Virus record (IMG/VR): IMGVR_UViG_2681813274_000006
Reading direction: 5' to 3' (one strand)
Source: a virus
Taxonomy: Duplodnaviria > Heunggongvirae > Uroviricota > Caudoviricetes
DNA: 5,878 nucleotides
The notes under the pieces were generated by a model. The model saw only the letters and a list, made by a program, of their open reading frames with translations, was not told the origin of the DNA and did not search any database. Numbering within the stretch: the stretch's first letter is position 1; each line of letters starts with the position of its first letter. The translations under genes were made by a program, and so were the position numbers. Shown here in pieces: positions 1 through 5,878 of the stretch.

Positions 1-570
1 AAACACTATCAATAAGTTGGAGTCATTACCCGATATCCTGCTGAGAACATAAACACCCACGGATCGAGGCGTACGCTATCATGTTGCTACCACACTGACA
101 TGTTTTAAAAAATGCAATAAGACATTGTATCTGANNNNNNNNNNNNNNNNNNNNNNNNNNNNNNNNNNNNNNNNNNNNNNNNNNNNNNNNNNNNNNNNNN
201 NNNNNNNNNNNNNNNNNNNNNNNNNNNNNNNNNNNNNNNNNNNNNNNNNNNNNNNNNNNNNNNNNNNNNNNNNNNNNNNNNNNNNNNNNNNNNNNNNNNN
301 NNNNNNNNNNNNNNNNNNNNNNNNNNNNNNNNNNNNNNNNNNNNNNNNNNNNNNNNNNNNNNNNNNNNNNNNNNNNNNNNNNNNNNNNNNNNNNNNNNNN
401 NNNNNNNNNNNNNNNNNNNNNNNNNNNNNNNNNNNNNNNNNNNNNNNNNNNNNNNNNNNNNNNNNNNNNNNNNNNNNNNNNNNNNNNNNNNNNNNNNNNN
501 NNNNNNNNNNNNNNNNNNNNNNNNNNNNNGCCGGGTTTTGTGATGACCGGTTACGCCAACCCTGTACGTC

Positions 571-620
571 TCACCACCTCCCTGATTGGCGTCAGAGGTG
601 GTGATCATCCAATTAATTGG
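571..620 (+). promoter_or_regulatory. Inverted repeat plus palindrome immediately upstream of the rha start codon; possible operator or structured element
   Basis: Perfect 10-bp inverted repeat TCACCACCTC (571-580) / GAGGTGGTGA (595-604) with a 14-nt spacer, followed by the perfect 12-bp palindrome CCAATTAATTGG (609-620) and GGAG at 619-622, about 10 nt before the ATG at 632. It may instead lie inside the 3' end of a masked upstream gene. Confidence 0.25.
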
Positions 621-631
621 AGTCATCACAT

Positions 632-1189
632 ATGAATACAGCTATAACTTTTTCTAACGAGTCACCAAAAGTCTTTTTCAAAGATGGTCGCCTGGTTACC
701 ACCTCTCAAGCTGTTGCCGACTACTTCGATAAACAACATAAACACGTTTTAGCTAAGATTGACACACTCGACTGCTCTCCCGAATTTACATCAGCCAACT
801 TTTCGGCCGATGTTCAGACTGTCGAAATTGGCAACGGCGCAGAACGTGAATCACGATGCTACCTGATCACAAAAGACGGCTTCATGTTCCTCGTAATGGG
901 ATTTACTGGCAAAAAAGCAGCCAGACTAAAAGAAGCTTACATTGAAAAATTTAACGCAATGGAAGAAGAACTCCACAAACGTCCTCCTGCAGCACAAAAC
1001 TCCCCCGCCCCAAATAATGGATGCGCATTACTGATCCACTTCGATAAACACGGTCAGGTCGAGTTCACAGAAAAAGTCCCCGCCGATGCGATGGTATGCA
1101 CTCTGGAACGGTTTAAATTTTATCTGGAGCAACATGGGTGGATCGTTGCCCGTAAAGAACAATTGGTGGAAAGGTTGATGCGGTTTTAA
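632..1189 (+). CDS. Rha-family phage regulatory protein: N-terminal Rha-like domain (about 110 aa) plus an uncharacterised C-terminal region (about 70 aa)
   Basis: Open frame of 186 codons from ATG 632 (the ORF track starts at TTG 617; ATG 632 with GGAG upstream is the more likely start). The N-terminal part (TTSQAVADYFDKQHKHVLAKIDTL ... CYLITKDGFMFLVMGFTGKKAARLKEAYIEKF) matches the pattern I recall for the phage Rha regulatory domain. Stop TAA at 1187-1189. Confidence 0.75.
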   Translation: MNTAITFSNESPKVFFKDGRLVTTSQAVADYFDKQHKHVLAKIDTLDCSPEFTSANFSADVQTVEIGNGAERESRCYLITKDGFMFLVMGFTGKKAARLKEAYIEKFNAMEEELHKRPPAAQNSPAPNNGCALLIHFDKHGQVEFTEKVPADAMVCTLERFKFYLEQHGWIVARKEQLVERLMRF

Positions 1190-1198
1190 TGAATGCAA

Positions 1199-1230
1199 AA
1201 CCCCGGATGATCACCGAGGTTAATTTTATC
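1199..1230 (+). terminator. Weak candidate intrinsic terminator after rha
   Basis: AACCCCGG (1199-1206) / CCGAGGTT (1214-1221) forms an imperfect 8-bp stem (one mismatch) with a 7-nt loop, followed by AATTTTATC. Confidence 0.3.
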
Positions 1231-1315
1231 GAGCGTGATTGCCGCTAATCGCCATCGCTCTGATTGAGCGTAAATCATTCAGGTTATTCAGTTCTTCCTT
1301 CTGCTCTCGCTGACG

Positions 1316-1486
1316 TCAATAAATCCCATCATTGCGATCAACCTCATCCTTAACCATTGATGCGAGCAGTTCTTCCAGTTTCTGCGCTGACAGCTTTACC
1401 TGGTGATCTTCAGCATCTTCCCGGGCTATTGTGGTTCGCGCAGTGGCTGATTTTGCTGACATCACCACAGGGGGCAGACGGACCAT
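1316..1486 (-). CDS. Hypothetical small protein (56 aa), convergent with rha
   Basis: ATG at 1486-1484 preceded by GGAGG with a 10-nt spacer (complement of 1497-1501); TGA stop at 1318-1316. Product MVRLPPVVMSAKSATARTTIAREDAEDHQVKLSAQKLEELLASMVKDEVDRNDGIY is charged and probably helical. The track ORF 1316-1597 starts at a TTG with no ribosome-binding site, so I prefer the internal ATG. No family recognised. Confidence 0.35.
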   Translation of the reverse strand: MVRLPPVVMSAKSATARTTIAREDAEDHQVKLSAQKLEELLASMVKDEVDRNDGIY

Positions 1487-1552
1487 TGAACCATGGCCTC
1501 CGGAACAAATAAGGGCAAAAATAACAACCACTATCGAAAGCTCACAAACTAA

Positions 1553-1586
1553 CCGCAGCACGTTCCTGCATACGACGTGTCTGCGG
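1553..1586 (-). terminator. GC-rich hairpin 15 nt downstream of the tfa-fragment stop; member of a recurring hairpin family
   Basis: CCGCAGCACGT (1553-1563) pairs with ACGTGTCTGCGG (1575-1586) with one bulge and an 11-nt loop; a moderately U-rich tract follows on the minus strand. Confidence 0.35.
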
Positions 1587-1600
1587 CATAATCCCAATGA

Positions 1601-1962
1601 TTACTCCCTGACAGGATTTGCAGGCCACTCAATATCAGGTGCAGTTGATGTATCAACACGATTCAACAATACCCGATATTTATTCCATGCCTCCAGCAAC
1701 GATCTTTCTTCCTCCGTTGCGATTTCCAGATCTACAGCATCCTGCAGTGGCGCAATATACTCACTAAATTCCTGGATGTAGAACTGTGTGGTGACGGTCT
1801 TCCAGCCATTCGGCTNNNNNNNNNNNNNNNNNNNNNNNNNNNNNNNNNNNNNNNNNNNNNNNNNNNNNNNNNNNNNNNNNNNNNNNNNCTCACTAAATTC
1901 CTGGATGTAGAACTGTGTGGTGACGGTCTTCCAGCCATTCGGCTCCTGCTGTATCGAAGCAT
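1601..1962 (-). pseudogene. Tail fibre assembly protein (lambda Tfa-like), 3' fragment only
   Basis: Minus-strand translation gives ...[70 protein letters not shown], matching the C-terminus I recall for lambda Tfa ([24 protein letters not shown]). The frame is closed upstream by TAG (complement of 1963-1965) with no N-terminal Tfa region. The track ORF 1732-1962 (-) is in a different frame and does not give this product. The region spans the masked 1816-1888 gap. Confidence 0.7.
1760..1944. repeat. Tandem direct duplication inside the tfa fragment: 56 bp identical at 1760-1815 and 1889-1944, 129-bp period
   Basis: Exact 56/56 identity on either side of the 73-nt N block. 129 bp is 43 codons, so the duplication is in-frame if the masked length is real. 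Confidence 0.6.
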
Positions 1963-2731: not shown

Positions 2732-2769
2732 CCGCAGCACGTTCTTGCTTAAGACGTGCTACGGTTTCC
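2732..2769 (+). terminator. Candidate intrinsic terminator 8 nt after the methyltransferase stop
   Basis: CCGCAGCACGT (2732-2742) / ACGTGCTACGG (2754-2764) forms an 11-bp stem with one mismatch and an 11-nt loop, followed by TTTCCTTT. The left arm is identical to that of the hairpin at 1553. Confidence 0.45.
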
Positions 2770-3027
2770 TTTACGATTTGGGGTTGCGACTTTACCTCTA
2801 TTGATAATGCATTCCGGCAGAACGTTCAAATATGAACGTACGATATTTAACTAACCGAAAAACAAAATATAGCACAGGCGAGACATTTACCATCTAAGAA
2901 AATAGTATCGTTTTTTTACAGTTAAATCAACATCTCTTCCTTAAAATGAAAACAATAAATTTCAATCCTGAAACATTTTATTTCAGCTTATNNNNNNNNN
3001 NNACGTGCTGCGGCATAATCCCAATGA

Positions 3028-3138
3028 TTACTCCCTGACAGGGTTCGTAGGCCACTCAATATCAGGTGCAGTTGATGTATCAACACGGTTCAGCAACACC
3101 CGATACTTTTTCTAGGCTTCCACCACCAGCACGACAAG
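3028..3138 (-). pseudogene. Second copy of the lambda-type tfa 3' end (about 27-35 codons), fused to the pin remnant
   Basis: Minus-strand translation of 3111-3028 gives [27 protein letters not shown]. It is about 90% identical at nucleotide level to 1575-1685 and is preceded by an in-frame TAG (3114-3112) where the other copy has TGG (Trp). Confidence 0.7.
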
Positions 3139-3354
3139 ATGCCGCATACAGTGCCCCAGTCAGTCCAGTTTTCAGACAACCAGTGCGTCACCTTTTTGAA
3201 GGCGCTTTAAAGCACGTTTTAATCCAGGTCGGCCTGTCCTTGTTCCGCTTAATTTATCTTCAAATATTTGTTCATATCCTGCACAAACAAGAGCGTTTCG
3301 TTGCAGGTCTGTATTCTGGTCATTTGTTGATACCCTTACATAGCCAATCAGCAC
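3139..3354 (-). pseudogene. pin: Pin/Gin/Hin-family serine DNA invertase, N-terminal remnant with in-frame stop codons
   Basis: From GTG 3354: (M)LIGYVRVSTNDQNTDLQRNALVCAGYEQIFEDKLSGTRTGRPGLKRALKRLQKGDALVV, then TGA (3174-3172) where Pin proteins have Trp, then KLD, a second TGA (3162-3160), then LGHCMRH. The catalytic-serine motif YVRVSTxxQ is intact. The remnant stops after about 70 codons instead of the roughly 185-190 aa of intact family members. Confidence 0.85.
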
Positions 3355-3408
3355 GCTGAATCTCCCGTCCAAAAGCACAAATCATGCCATGCAGGCCAGA
3401 AACCGCCA

Positions 3409-3434: not shown

Positions 3435-4193
3435 CTCGGCACAAGCGGGGAGAAAATACCGTTACTCAGTACAGCGAATACCTGGACTAATCGACAAACA
3501 TTCAGCGGTGGCCTTTCTGGTGAACTATCCGGCAATGCTTCTACAGCTGCAAAATTAAAAACTGCCAGGAAAATAAGCAATGTGGCTTTTGATGGTTCCT
3601 CCGATATCACATTAAAAGCAAGTCATGTTGGTGCGTTTGCCTTAGGGAAAACAGGAAGCACCGTTGCGAATGATAAAGCAGTTGGATGGAACTGGAGTAG
3701 CGGAGCCTATAACGCAACTATTAGTGGTGCATCAACGTTAATTATTCATTTTTATATGGGAGAAGGAAGTTGTCCTGCAGCTCAGTTTCGGATTAATTAT
3801 AAAAATGGCGGTATTTTTTATCGTTCAGCCCGTGATGGTTATGGTTTTGAAGCCGACTGGTCCGAATTTTACACCACCAGAAAACCTTCAGCAGGAGATG
3901 TTGGTGCACTGCCGTTATCTGGTGGTCAACTGAATGGTGCACTGGGTATCGGAACATCCAGTGCTCTTGGCGGTAATTCGATTGTATTGGGTGATAATGA
4001 CACGGGCTTTAAACAAAAAGGCGATGGTAATCTGGATGTTTATGCTAATAACGTCCATGTTATGCGCTTTGTCTCCGGAAGCATTCAAAGTAATAAAACC
4101 ATAAATATTACGGGACGTGTTAATCCCTCGGATTACGGTAACTTTGATTCCCGCTATGTGAGAGATGTCAGACTTGGCACACGAGTTGTTTAG
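3417..4193 (+). CDS. Tail-fibre C-terminal variable-domain cassette; promoterless, with the frame opening inside the crossover site
   Basis: The frame is open from the TAA inside the crossover site (3414-3416) to TAG 4191-4193 (259 codons). The track calls only the GTG at 3582. The product (...LLSTANTWTNRQTFSGGLSGELSGNASTAAKLKTARKISNVAFDGSSDITLKAS...) is Gly/Ser/Thr/Asn-rich like phage tail-fibre distal domains. There is no ATG or ribosome-binding site at the 5' end, consistent with expression only after inversion joins it to a constant region. Confidence 0.7.
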   Translation, partial: NLGLRELGTSGEKIPLLSTANTWTNRQTFSGGLSGELSGNASTAAKLKTARKISNVAFDGSSDITLKASHVGAFALGKTGSTVANDKAVGWNWSSGAYNATISGASTLIIHFYMGEGSCPAAQFRINYKNGGIFYRSARDGYGFEADWSEFYTTRKPSAGDVGALPLSGGQLNGALGIGTSSALGGNSIVLGDNDTGFKQKGDGNLDVYANNVHVMRFVSGSIQSNKTINITGRVNPSDYGNFDSRYVRDVRLGTRVV

Positions 4194-4196
4194 ACC

Positions 4197-4343
4197 ATGA
4201 AGAAAGGCGTGATGTATGAAAAATCAGGCCATGTAATCACGGGGCTTGGTATTATCGGTGAAGTCGATGGTGATGATCCGGCAGTATTCAGACCAATACA
4301 AAAGTTAATTAACGGAACATGGTATAACGTATCGCAGGTATAA
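4197..4343 (+). pseudogene. Detached tail-fibre C-terminal tip (48 codons), separated from the cassette by an in-frame TAG
   Basis: Same frame as 3417-4193, with only TAG plus one codon between them. Its product ...[39 protein letters not shown] aligns with the contiguous C-terminus of the minus-strand fibre ([39 protein letters not shown]). Confidence 0.5.
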
Positions 4344-4345
4344 TC

Positions 4346-4999
4346 ATGCAGCATTTAAAAAACATTGTCGCAGGTAATCCAAAAACCGTTGAACAATACC
4401 AGCTAACAAAGAATTTTGATGTTATCTGGTTATGGTCCGAAGATGGAAAAAATTGGCATGAGGAATTAAAANNNNNNNNNNNNNNNNNNNNNNNNNNNNN
4501 NNNNNNNNNNNNNNNNNNNNNNNNNNNNNNNNNNNNNNNNNNNNNNNNNNNNNNNNNNNNNNNNNNNNNNNNNNNNNNNNNNNNNNNNNNNNNNNNNNNN
4601 NNNNNNNNNNNNNNNNNNNNNNNNNNNNNNNNNNNNNNNNNNNNNNNNNNNNNNNNNNNNNNNNNNNNNNNNNNNNNNNNNNNNNNNNNNNNNNNNNNNN
4701 NNNNNNNNNNNNNNNNNNNNNNNNNNNNNNNNNNNNNNNNNNNNNNNNNNNNNNNNNNNNNNNNNNNNNNNNNNNNNNNNNNNNNNNNNNNNNNNNNNNN
4801 NNNNNNNNNNNNNNNNNNNNNNNNNNNNNNNNNNNNNNNNNNNNNNNNNNNNNNNNNNNNNNNNGACTCTCAGCTACAGCTGGGCATCATTTCCGATGAG
4901 AATAAACAAAAATTAACCGAGTGGATGCTCTATGCGCAGAAGGTTGAATCCACAGACACCTCCAGCCTGCCAGTAACGTTTCCCGAACAACCAGAATGA
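4346..4999 (+). CDS. Tail fibre assembly protein (Tfa); interior masked
   Basis: ATG 4346 lies 2 nt after the preceding stop. The N-terminus [23 protein letters not shown] is paralogous to the minus-strand tfa, and the C-terminus ...[28 protein letters not shown] is Tfa-like. 393 nt of the interior are N-masked, so length and frame continuity are assumed. Confidence 0.75.
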
Positions 5000-5001
5000 G
5001 A

Positions 5002-5032
5002 GAAGGCCCGCTATCGGGCCTTAATTTTTATT
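5002..5032. terminator. Hairpin between the convergent tfa genes; probable terminator
   Basis: GAAGGCCCG (5002-5010), loop CTAT, CGGGCCTT (5015-5022), followed by AATTTTTATT on the plus strand. The T-tract overlaps the stop of the minus-strand tfa (5028-5030). Confidence 0.5.
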
Positions 5033-5555
5033 CAGGCTTTTGTGGCCATTCAGGATTTGCCGTATCCACACGGCTGACCAGAACACTGTAGCGTTCCCAT
5101 GCTTCCAGTCGTGTGCGTTCCTCGTCTGTTGCCATATTCAGCCTGACAGCTCGTTCCAGCGGCTGGATGACTGATTCAGCTTCGGAAAGCAATGCGGCCT
5201 TTTGTGATTCGGCCTGTTGTTGCAGTTCCTGTTCTGTATATTCCCTCTTTACTACTTTACCATCCAGAAACATCCATTTTCCGTTATTGTCTGCGTGACG
5301 ATTTGCCGTAATATCAGGAACTTCAACTATGCTTAGCCCTTCAGGATTAATAGTTGAAACGTCTTTACTGACAGCAACGATGATGTTGTTCTCATCGTAA
5401 GCAATTTTTATGGTGTCTGGCTGAAAATTCTTTTGTTCCTCATACCAGTTTTTGCCATCTTCGCAAAAGAGCCATACCACGCCCGCTTTTTTAGTTAGCT
5501 GGTATTGTTCCGGTGTTTTCGGATTCCCGGCCTTAATATTTTTCAGGTGCATCAT
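5028..5555 (-). CDS. Tail fibre assembly protein (Tfa)
   Basis: ATG at 5555-5553, with GGGGAG about 9 nt upstream, starts 1 nt after the fibre stop. Product [23 protein letters not shown] ... [31 protein letters not shown] has a lambda Tfa-like C-terminal motif. The track ORF starts at an upstream TTG (5591), which I think is less likely. Confidence 0.85.
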
Positions 5556-5556
5556 C

Positions 5557-5878
5557 TTAAACACTCCCCACGTTGTACCATATTCCCCCAATCAATTTCT
5601 GAATTGGCCTTCTGGCAACAGTGTCGACAATATCATCCGCATTGCTGTTAATTGCGGCTGTTAAAACATAACCTGACGCATCGCCAAAGCCGTAGTCGCG
5701 CCATACGTTTTTATATTCAATGCTGCCAAGACGAATATCCCGAACGACATGATTATGCAGCCATGTGCTTAACCAGTTGTTTTCCCACACTGAACCATAA
5801 ATATCGCCACTAGACGCAACTTGCGCACCACTTCCCAGCGCAAATTGAGGTAGCCTGAGTTTAACGGACACTCCTTCC
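5557..5878 (-). CDS. Tail fibre protein, C-terminal part; 5' end lies beyond the window
   Basis: The frame is open to the window edge (the track M at 5871 is a GTG; codons continue upstream). The C-terminus ...[62 protein letters not shown] is homologous to the plus-strand cassette and tip, and is followed directly by tfa. Confidence 0.8.

Follow-up and report, generated by a model that had tools for sequence, protein, structure and literature searches.

The 5,878-nt stretch of viral DNA analyzed here (IMG/VR record IMGVR_UViG_2681813274_000006, referred to as the window) very probably carries, at about positions 360-1231, an immunity-I-type antirepressor cassette of the kind represented by P1 immI, P4 CI, and Gifsy-1 isrK. 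The first-pass annotation of this DNA had proposed a Rha-domain gene, possibly coupled to a first gene hidden under a masked block, and what was then a hypothetical two-gene module would now become a recognizable RNA-gated antirepressor switch. The sequence facts of that annotation were confirmed overall, apart from the length of the rha product, which counts 185 aa rather than 186. The rha gene is distal and an upstream open reading frame (ORF) does end on its start codon, but the masked partner does not appear to be an ordinary protein-coding gene.

The mask is a run of 395 N at positions 135-529. We read it from a public contig, L092, which matches the window at 100% identity wherever window sequence is visible; a second sequence, L001, is 99.8% identical to window 530-1815 and the same as L092 from the promoter onward (window position = L001 - 5471 = L092 - 337). 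Coordinates within the N-run were counted back from 530 and are thus inferred rather than read directly. The same flanks enclose 324-326 nt in L092, L001, and L086, and the N-run of the window is 71 nt longer, an excess that may come from an insertion in this genome's copy. The counterpart of the masked DNA in L092 carries a sigma-70 promoter, then an isrK-like sRNA, and at its end the 5′ half of the antisense RNA C4 (Table 1).

Table 1. Features of the cassette in window coordinates
Feature	Position	Strand	Basis or remark
Predicted sigma-70 promoter	360-389; -35 TTGACA 360-365, 18-nt spacer, -10 TATATT 384-389	+	In N-run, inferred from L092/L001
isrK-like sRNA with a1/b1 sites and intrinsic terminator	396-470; stem ~450-465, then T-run	+	In N-run, from proxies
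C4 antisense RNA gene	494-581; 530-581 visible, 494-529 under N-run	+	Rfam RF01695
45-codon leader ORF MVGRAGAEKSAPGFVMTGYANPVRLTTSLIGVRGGDHPINWSHHI	498-635; AUG in 5′ strand of C4 closing stem, TGA 633-635	+	Positional homologue of Gifsy-1 orf45
Hairpin directly 3′ of C4, b2 UUGGCGU in loop and 3′ shoulder	575-600; b2 586-592	+	Predicted fold
rha translation-initiation region	601-631; SD GGAG 619-622; a2 622-630	+	Fold and complementarity
rha CDS, 185 aa	632-1189; ATG 632-634, stop 1187-1189	+	RefSeq WP_001348267.1 "Rha family transcriptional regulator"
C-terminal beta-beta-alpha-alpha domain of Rha, ~57 aa (aa 129-185)	1016-1186	+	AF2 domain model, pLDDT 89.7
Terminator-like hairpin and T-rich tail 3′ of rha	1199-1231	+	L001 6670-6692, 8 pairs

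The promoter matches at 11 of 12 positions, is the sole promoter-like site in L001 5640-6760, and is also kept in Gifsy-1, upstream of isrK. The Rfam isrK model (RF01394) scores 72.2 bits in L001 and L092 against a gathering score of 50, and this match, together with the terminator-like site, identifies an a1/b1 decoy element with its own terminator. The c4-a1b1 model (RF03163) scores 43.8 bits, slightly under its gathering score of 46.7, which we count against the reading as a switch. The C4 model (RF01695) matches both sequences over its full length (1-87) with 75.9 bits against a gathering score of 45, and the gene is a homologue of P1/P7 c4, P4 CI, and Salmonella STnc1160. It ends 50 nt before the rha AUG on the same strand, with only its 3′ 52 nt visible in the window. 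When 26 homologues were compared with RNAalifold, 17 of the 27 pairs in the C4 structure showed double compensatory changes; the 3′ end of the RNA is tRNA-like (...CACCACC), the one visible trait bearing on release of C4 by RNase P, which is expected in modules of this type.

Two segments of C4 have complements between the end of the RNA gene and the start of rha. The first, b2, starts 5 nt past C4, and its UUGGCGU is complementary over 7 nt to b′ (ACGCCAA) of C4. The second, a2 GUCAUCACA (622-630; -10 to -2), is a perfect 9-nt complement of UGUGAUGAC in the loop of C4 hairpin 2. Whole-RNA duplex prediction gave unrealistically long duplexes, and complementarity was instead assessed from loop-restricted duplexes and longest-complement counts. 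A b′:b2 complement of at least 7 nt starts 1-8 nt past the C4 3′ end at 26 of 26 loci, and a cognate a′:a2 complement, again 7 nt or longer, falls between -23 and -5 relative to the start codon at all 26, the sequences differing from locus to locus in both cases; in the duplex-energy test the cognate mean was reached by 0 of 2000 permutations. The rha initiation region is predicted to fold (MFE -20 kcal/mol, z = -2.07) into a local hairpin, 601-605/625-629 plus 608-612/617-621, that pairs two of the SD bases (619-620). Judged by sequence, a2 and b2 are placed at the translation-initiation region as in a C4 module, and their pairing with C4 is predicted. We note that the order of the sites here is b2 then a2, whereas that of the upstream decoy is a1 then b1, which also counts against a switch.

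We propose that the constitutive-looking promoter would yield the isrK-like sRNA, ending at its own terminator, and that read-through transcripts would provide the C4 antisense RNA and then rha. C4, either folded in cis or released by processing, would pair with a2 in the SD-AUG spacer by way of the hairpin-2 loop (a′), and with b2, just downstream, by way of the 3′ single-stranded segment (b′); together with the local hairpin over part of the SD, these pairings would hold rha untranslated. The short isrK RNA, carrying decoy a1/b1 sites, may open this structure, as for Gifsy-1 IsrK. Ribosomes starting at the AUG buried in the C4 stem would then translate the 45-codon leader and terminate on the AUGA, and this termination would melt the rha initiation region and pass ribosomes to rha by translational coupling. 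Rha would most likely act as an antirepressor on a CI/LexA-type prophage repressor, and specificity or effector function would reside in its fast-evolving C-terminal domain. The scheme suggests a route for inducing the ompW prophage, in which the module lies, or co-resident prophages without RecA cleavage; the current understanding of the mechanism is left unchanged by these findings.

The Gifsy-1 locus of Salmonella Typhimurium (Hershko-Shalev et al. 2016, PMC4825925) has the same promoter, isrK, C4 (STnc1160), and b2 hairpin, and the regulatory region here is 79% identical to the isrK locus at the nucleotide level. Its orf45, like the leader here, has 45 codons, uses the same AUG, spans 134 nt from AUG to AUG, and ends in an AUGA overlap; indels, however, shift the frame in which the middle of the leader peptide is read. 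In Gifsy-1 the isrK terminator is read through, IsrK activates in trans, orf45 is translated, and anrP translation needs orf45 translation (PMC4825925). The two loci differ in the sequences of the C4 loop and a2 and in the position of a2, which is 5′ of the SD in Gifsy-1 and between SD and AUG here. They also differ in place, the module here being beside the attachment site, beyond the tail fibres, and that of Gifsy-1 downstream of Q. The Gifsy-1 locus includes isrJ, whereas an Rfam scan found no isrJ-like RNA 3′ of rha; the terminator-like hairpin that follows rha has one stem mismatch in the window (ccgagg) and is perfect in L001.

In immI of P1/P7, a C4 RNA of the same Rfam family likewise lies upstream of the antirepressor gene in one operon, with a2/b2 in the downstream initiation region and decoy a1/b1 upstream (the c4-icd-ant paradigm is summarized in PMC8198154). 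A small upstream ORF, icd, is coupled to the antirepressor gene there, and the matching feature here is the leader layout only; unlike in P1, the leader starts inside C4 and a2 lies on the rha RBS itself. Riedel et al. are said to have found in 1993 that P1 icd starts downstream of c4 and encodes a 73-aa cell-division inhibitor, its RBS being the C4 target. P1 Ant is an AntA/ANT-type protein, where Rha stands here, and the P1 immI operon is additionally repressed by C1. In P22 immI (arc/mnt - sar - ant), too, the antirepressor is restrained by an antisense RNA, as we propose here, but the sar RNA family, the Arc/Mnt repressors, and the N-terminal domain are all different, and none of them is present in the window.

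Phage P4 shows the same order of elements (seqA - CI RNA - seqC), its seqA and CI being homologues of isrK and C4, and P4 immunity is RNA-based (PMC4825925, discussion; PMC10111431), with CI, at least in the P4 work as quoted in PMC4825925, acting by transcription termination. By analogy, C4/CI pairing could mainly terminate transcription upstream of rha and leave the leader ORF incidental, which would suit both the strong terminator at the isrK end and a leader ORF end that is not conserved across the family. However, at the 26 loci a2 invariably overlaps or adjoins the SD or the AUG of the gene that follows, a placement that translational control predicts and pure termination control does not, and the Gifsy-1 operon without IsrK is transcribed but untranslated (280 versus 4 Miller units, Table 1A of PMC4825925). 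P4 CI, moreover, controls termination of the epsilon/alpha replication operon, where the next gene is epsilon (PF25738) rather than a gene of the Rha/AnrP type. We consider it improbable that termination is the main mode of control here, the two mechanisms being compatible with each other. In P1, blocked translation reportedly also leads to termination, as the 1990 work of Citron and Schuster and later work are said to have found.

As the first-pass annotation had it, the Rha domain is limited to the N-terminal part of the product: Pfam Phage_pRha (PF09669) matches aa 23-112 (nt 698-967; 3.4e-27, 95.3 bits against a cut-off of 29.9), and TIGR02681 scores 81.3 against 45.95, which places the protein in the Rha family. 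In the AF2 full-length model (pLDDT 76.6) the N-terminal domain is compact and the linker, aa 118-129, is disordered and of low confidence. The C-terminal 70 aa had been described as matching nothing recognized, which holds for curated models, since no Pfam or NCBIfam model matches them; the domain model found no fold match in PDB or BFVD, and a tblastn search of 50,697 phage genomes with the last 75 aa gave nothing convincing (one match, E 0.7). For Rha as a whole, coverage of at least 80% was seen in only 4 phage records. The domain is no orphan, however. BLASTP aligns it with aa 121-184 of Gifsy-1 AnrP (32% identity, E 3e-6), whose C-terminus it is, by sequence, homologous to, and among PHROG profiles it matches phrog_2379 "anti-repressor" (1.8e-17) and phrog_25059 (5.7e-18). 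The AnrP sequence was taken directly from NC_010392; another candidate for AnrP, P0099, was rejected, its neighbourhood being a Rac-like early region rather than Gifsy-1.

A profile of the C-terminal domain matched only 62 cluster representatives among 1.84e9, and the domain was found behind six N-domain classes (Rha, Bro-N, ORF6N, KilA-N, P22_AR_N, and AntA). Its contexts include a KilA-N protein behind isrK and C4, a Bro-N protein behind sRNA-Xcc1, and one P22_AR_N protein in an arc-sar locus, behind Arc and sar RNA. A characterized C-terminal domain in a common context had been expected to speak against the original two-gene proposal; the context does prove common, namely antirepressor genes under antisense-RNA control, while a curated model is absent. 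The domain has no Pfam, NCBIfam, or fold match, is swapped among at least six N-domain classes, and occurs in both C4-type and sar-type loci; we tentatively suggest, as a possibility somewhat short of an even chance, that it is an unrecognized, fast-evolving effector or specificity module of antisense-RNA-controlled antirepressors. This small, uncurated domain is thereby flagged as a candidate determinant of repressor specificity across many antirepressor architectures, and if target-repressor recognition is its role, the prophages that cross-induce one another would be predictable from its sequence type.

The trait that first defined Rha, according to the TIGR02681/Pfam description, was its interference with phages growing in IHF-deficient hosts, and its family name, the "transcriptional regulator" labels of phrog_995/518 among its PHROG matches, and the compact N-terminal domain could all point away from an antirepressor, to a DNA-binding transcription regulator or a toxic or phage-exclusion effector silenced by the RNAs. 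We think this unlikely. The Rha N-terminal domain is interchangeable with Bro-N, KilA-N, ORF6N, AntA, and P22_AR_N before the same C-terminal domain, which also occurs in the P22-type arc-sar-ant locus, and many Rha-domain phage genes are annotated as antirepressors, although these are labels and not experiments. AnrP, which shares the C-terminal domain, raises transcription of the antQ operon and induces Gifsy-1 (PMC4825925). Since the N-terminal domain of AnrP is ORF6N and not Rha, the probable antirepressor activity of Rha is carried over through the C-terminal domain and the shared context only.

Related rha genes were compared at 40 genome loci, which range from Enterobacterales to Vibrionaceae, Acinetobacter, and Neisseriales, and 37 of these have a C4 RNA or the C4-like sRNA-Xcc1 immediately upstream. 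The cassette occurs at 99% identity or more in several hundred complete E. coli genomes. Here the module stands at the end of a lambdoid prophage that is integrated in ompW, next to trpA, and encodes Cro and a LexA-family CI-like repressor, WP_000103687.1. This prophage end is decayed and IS-ridden, which again counts against a switch: around the module lie an IS1 end (window 1-30), truncated ompW, and pseudogenes for tail-fibre assembly and an invertase, and in another strain (L086) an IS21 is inserted in the rha 3′ end. (P0001, of 191 aa, was rejected as the window's own Rha, being an IS21-truncated variant.) Such debris, the mismatch in the terminator stem of the window, and the unexplained length of the N-run would also fit a non-functional relic that a decayed prophage end has left in this genome and that no longer has a role there. 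We give that account little credence, because neither rha nor the leader ORF nor the RNA genes are disrupted; 447 records span 80% or more of the query, and 591 reach 99% identity or better in their best match; and relatives whose Rha is 85-90% identical have the same leader peptide or one that deviates at a single residue. The prophage in L001/L085 also retains its repressor, Cro, replication, lysis, and structural genes.

The upstream frame, ...PGFVMTGYANPVRLTTSLIGVRGGDHPINWSHHI, stops at TGA 633-635 in an ATGA overlap with the rha ATG, exactly as first described, and the suspicion that it is open under the mask was borne out in L001, where it runs for 97 codons. RefSeq annotates there a 91-aa "ash family protein" (WP_001296031.1) that overlaps rha by the ATGA and matches Pfam PF10554 (2.9e-14, 53.8 bits). 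Its TTG start (L001 5831), however, is formed by the first three bases of the -35 element of the only promoter, so that the first ~36 nt (12 codons) precede the likely transcription start, and the ORF passes through two RNA genes and an intrinsic terminator. Where nucleotides are conserved between this locus and Gifsy-1, the two loci read them in different frames. Entropy by codon phase is flat (0.88/0.93/0.87), that is, codon periodicity is absent, whereas entropy differs between paired and unpaired columns (0.69 versus 1.29). Among relatives, the length and stop position of the leader ORF vary freely. On these grounds, a masked ordinary protein gene is unsupported, the "ash" frame does not behave as a translated product conserved at the protein level, and the RefSeq protein is here most likely the translation of an RNA gene. 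The account in which a 91-aa Ash-family protein is made, is coupled to Rha, and works together with it, for which the annotation, the PF10554 match, the open frame, and the ATGA might speak, is therefore scarcely credible.

The 45-codon leader ORF is the only plausibly translated part of the upstream frame, and its coupling to rha at this locus is probable by analogy with orf45. The overlap that first suggested coupling is weak evidence when taken alone, and we rejected it as such, as the ATGA start is present in 24 of the 38 related loci listed; an upstream ORF of at least 30 codons ends there in only 5 of the 24, including this one. Leader termination on the rha AUG is kept in just two lineages, the E. 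coli ompW prophage and Gifsy-1, while in other relatives the leader ORF ends 13-80 nt upstream of rha or is fused in frame to it. Coupling is thus no general requirement of the family.

The Pfam "Phage_ASH" conceptual ORF likewise lies over an RNA in P4, whose immunity is the RNA-based one described above: the stretch of the old "cI" ORF that PF10554 matches is the very one in which the C4 model detects the CI RNA. A side point of the C-terminal-module suggestion is that, if it is true, "ash family protein" (PF10554) annotations as a class would be translations of the C4/CI RNA gene. We note that the equation of P4 epsilon with PF10554 in PMC8628076 is unsupported, as epsilon matches PF25738 and it is the old cI ORF that PF10554 matches.

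The rha gene very probably belongs to an isrK/C4 antisense-RNA-gated cassette for a predicted antirepressor, an already known kind of switch whose closest known example, judged from sequence comparison, is isrK-orf45-anrP of the Salmonella Typhimurium prophage Gifsy-1. The first-pass annotation had proposed a protein gene hidden in the N-run at 135-529 and coupled to rha. Its description of rha and the upstream frame holds in the window sequence, except that the ORF gives a product of 185 aa and not 186 aa; the frame that leaves the N-run at 530 encodes ...PGFVMTGYANPVRLTTSLIGVRGGDHPINWSHHI and ends at TGA 633-635, which overlaps the rha start as ATGA.

The masked DNA was read through unmasked relatives. 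A locus adjoining trpA and a truncated ompW shares 99.7% identity with window 530-1300, and database matches to the rha locus comprise 447 records with at least 80% query coverage and 591 records whose best match is at least 99% identical. Flanking DNA and annotation came from the genome locus L001 (NZ_CP028483.1), and the viral contig L092 was located via the IS1/ompW junction. L092 is 100% identical to all visible window parts and equals L001 in sequence from the promoter onward (window = L001 - 5471 = L092 - 337). The 395-nt N-run corresponds to 324-326 nt between the same flanks in L092, L001, and a further stand-in, L086. The remaining N-runs (1816-1888, 2992-3002, and 4472-4864) are likewise longer than the proxy DNA, the last with 393 N versus 273 nt in L092. 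An exact 56-nt duplication flanks the 73-N run at 1816-1888, where L092 and L001 have one copy only; neither of them contains an equivalent of window 2765-2991. The N-runs thus look like scaffold gaps or joins, or length-altered masks, and not simple masking, although a real insertion of ~70 nt within 135-529 of the window genome is possible.

Both isrK and the C4 RNA gene, as recognized by Rfam, lie inside the CDS that RefSeq annotates as an "ash family protein". The first three bases of the promoter's -35 hexamer are the annotated "ash" TTG start codon, and an intrinsic terminator stands at the isrK end.

Features of the rha region and the tail-fiber genes (window coordinates)
Feature	Position	Strand	Details
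rha CDS	ATG 632 to TAA 1187-1189	+	ORF of 185 aa
Leader ORF	AUG 498 to ATGA		45 codons; AUG conserved, in 5' strand of C4 closing stem
"ash family protein" (RefSeq)	360-635		91 aa, TTG start; overlaps rha; Pfam match PF10554
Sigma-70-like promoter	360-389		TTGACA-18-TATATT; 11/12 positions match; sole one in region
isrK	396-470		Rfam 72.2 bits, gathering 50
C4 antisense RNA	494-581		Rfam 75.9 bits, gathering 45
c4-a1b1	overlaps isrK		Rfam 43.8 bits, gathering 46.7
Tail-fiber genes	3582-4193, 4346-4999	+	
Tail-fiber genes	5028-5591, 5557-5871	-	

Four lines of evidence argue against "Ash" as a real protein at this locus. The regulatory DNA of Gifsy-1 and the rha locus is 79% identical with indels of -4, +1, and +7 nt, so that the conserved stretch GGTTACGCCAACCCTGTACGTCTCACCACC is read in different frames, as GYANPVRLTT at the rha locus and VTPTLYVSPP in Gifsy-1. 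Among 26 homologues, column entropy by codon position is 0.88/0.93/0.87, with third-position excess absent, and follows RNA pairing (paired 0.69 vs unpaired 1.29); compensatory double changes occur in 17 of the 27 C4 pairs. The ORF from the conserved AUG spans 17-54 codons in related loci, and its end falls between 80 nt ahead of the rha AUG and 29 nt beyond it; some loci have it joined in frame with rha, which accounts for database proteins carrying PF10554 and PF09669 together. In phage P4, whose immunity is RNA-based (PMC4825925; PMC10111431), PF10554 "Phage_ASH" matches an obsolete 137-aa "cI" ORF (L095 8168-8584, minus strand) at the position of the CI RNA, which scores 74.9 bits with the C4 model. 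PF10554 has been taken as an epsilon marker in a published survey of P4 satellites (PMC8628076). Because PF10554 covers the P4 CI RNA and the epsilon family is PF25738, it seems that PF10554 matches, like the "ash family protein" entries of PGAP, result from translating the C4/CI RNA gene; this is one useful by-product of the analysis.

The proposed coupling is partly right, since there is a leader ORF and the homologous ORF of Gifsy-1 is coupled; the hidden protein gene was mistaken, with RNA genes in its place. Gifsy-1 orf45 matches the rha leader in its start, its 45 codons, the 134 nt from AUG to AUG, and the AUGA overlap. There, the isrK promoter gives a read-through mRNA that is transcribed without translation (280 vs 4 units), and IsrK in trans activates translation ~100-fold (Hershko-Shalev et al., PMC4825925). 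Translation of orf45 has been demonstrated, anrP activation is reduced by orf45 start-codon mutations or an early stop, and orf45 is conserved at the nucleotide and not the amino-acid level (PMC4825925). In E. coli relatives with Rha 85-90% identical, the leader peptide differs by 0-1 residue. This likeness and this retention make leader-to-rha translational coupling plausible; it is not shared across the whole family.

The loop of C4 hairpin 2, UGUGAUGAC, is the perfect complement of GUCAUCACA at 622-630 (a2), between the Shine-Dalgarno GGAG (619-622) and the rha AUG. The C4 segment ACGCCAA (b') is complementary to UUGGCGU (b2, 586-592), a site presented by the loop and 3' shoulder of the hairpin just after C4. 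Both pairings (at least 7 nt) recur at equivalent places in 26/26 aligned loci, with a2 between positions -23 and -5 relative to the start codon and b2 beginning 1-8 nt after C4, and the pairing sequences vary between loci. Cognate duplexes between loop and translation-initiation region are stabler than non-cognate ones (means -16.7 vs -11.8 kcal/mol), and the cognate mean was attained by none of 2000 permutations. A local hairpin at the rha start also pairs part of the Shine-Dalgarno (z = -2.07). P1/P7 c4 follows the same pairing logic (PMC8198154); at the rha locus, the a2 site falls on the ribosome-binding region itself.

C4 or sRNA-Xcc1 lies just upstream in 37 of 40 genome loci with related Rha proteins, usually with isrK. 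In some loci sRNA-Xcc1-type RNAs replace C4, and judged by eye these have the same loop-to-RBS complementarity. sRNA-Xcc1 (Rfam RF02221, no clan listed) holds the C4 position ~30-140 nt upstream of Rha- and Bro-N-type genes (L004, L008, L009, L022, L030-L032, L034, L039, L082, and L098) and may be a functional analogue or distant relative of C4.

Rha aa 23-112 are matched by Pfam Phage_pRha (3.4e-27) and aa 11-117 by TIGR02681. The last 70 aa, reported earlier as unrecognized, indeed match no model in Pfam or NCBIfam, but they align with aa 121-184 of the antirepressor AnrP (32% identity, E 3e-6), whose own N-domain is ORF6N, and match phrog_2379 "anti-repressor" (1.8e-17) and phrog_25059. In the full-length AF2 model (pLDDT 76.6) the N-domain is folded, aa 118-129 form a disordered linker, and the C-terminus makes up a beta-beta-alpha-alpha unit, which modeled by itself reaches pLDDT 89.7; structure searches of PDB and BFVD with this domain found zero neighbors. 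Its profile matched only 62 cluster representatives among 1.84 billion, and its N-terminal partners (42 tested) include Rha (14), Bro-N (9), ORF6N (4), KilA-N (4), P22_AR_N (3), and AntA (2). Examples are isrK and C4 followed by a KilA-N protein, sRNA-Xcc1 followed by a Bro-N protein, and arc with sar RNA followed by a P22_AR_N protein, each with the Rha-type C-terminal domain. A useful by-product is thus the delineation of an uncurated domain common to several antirepressor architectures. Members of the Rha subfamily hardly differ in the N-domain, and in the C-terminal domain one Gly alone is invariant; we infer that the C-terminal domain would be the part of the putative antirepressor that varies and provides its effector function or specificity.

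Among related loci, the module lies beside the integrase, downstream of Q, or at the prophage end past the tail fibers, as in the window. In L001/L085, it terminates a lambdoid prophage of ~50 kb, interrupted by IS21 and IS66 elements, with a LexA-family CI-like repressor, Cro, replication, Q, lysis, head, and tail genes; the repressor is the obvious candidate target of Rha.

Window 1-30 has thousands of matching sites in E. coli genomes and plasmids, and we take it to be the IS1 terminal inverted repeat. IS1 directly abuts the ompW remnant in the window genome, and L086 carries IS1 genes for InsA and the transposase immediately upstream. At window 88/89, 44 nt of the remnant are missing that are present in L092 (452-495) and L086. 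In the terminator hairpin after rha (1199-1221), a G of the 3' arm is replaced by A (ccgagg); the L001 stem is a perfect 8 bp. A class I SAM-dependent methyltransferase gene (2056-2724, +; 222 aa; Methyltransf_12/23/25), intact and cargo-like, lies at the prophage end between tail-fiber-assembly pseudogene fragments. Flanking it are ~89-90% identical repeats (1551-1695, 2730-2764, and 3003-3122), tail-fiber-assembly gene fragments by L001 annotation, and a truncated Pin-like invertase ORF (3172-3378, -) adjoins them; together these are probably a decayed invertible tail-fiber segment. Tail-fiber C-terminal (gp37_C) and tail-fiber-assembly genes occupy both strands of 3582-5871 convergently, the usual arrangement of an alternative-host-range cassette. 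An STnc100 sRNA match (161 bits) lies at L092 10100-10309 (-), ~4.4 kb past the right end of the window.
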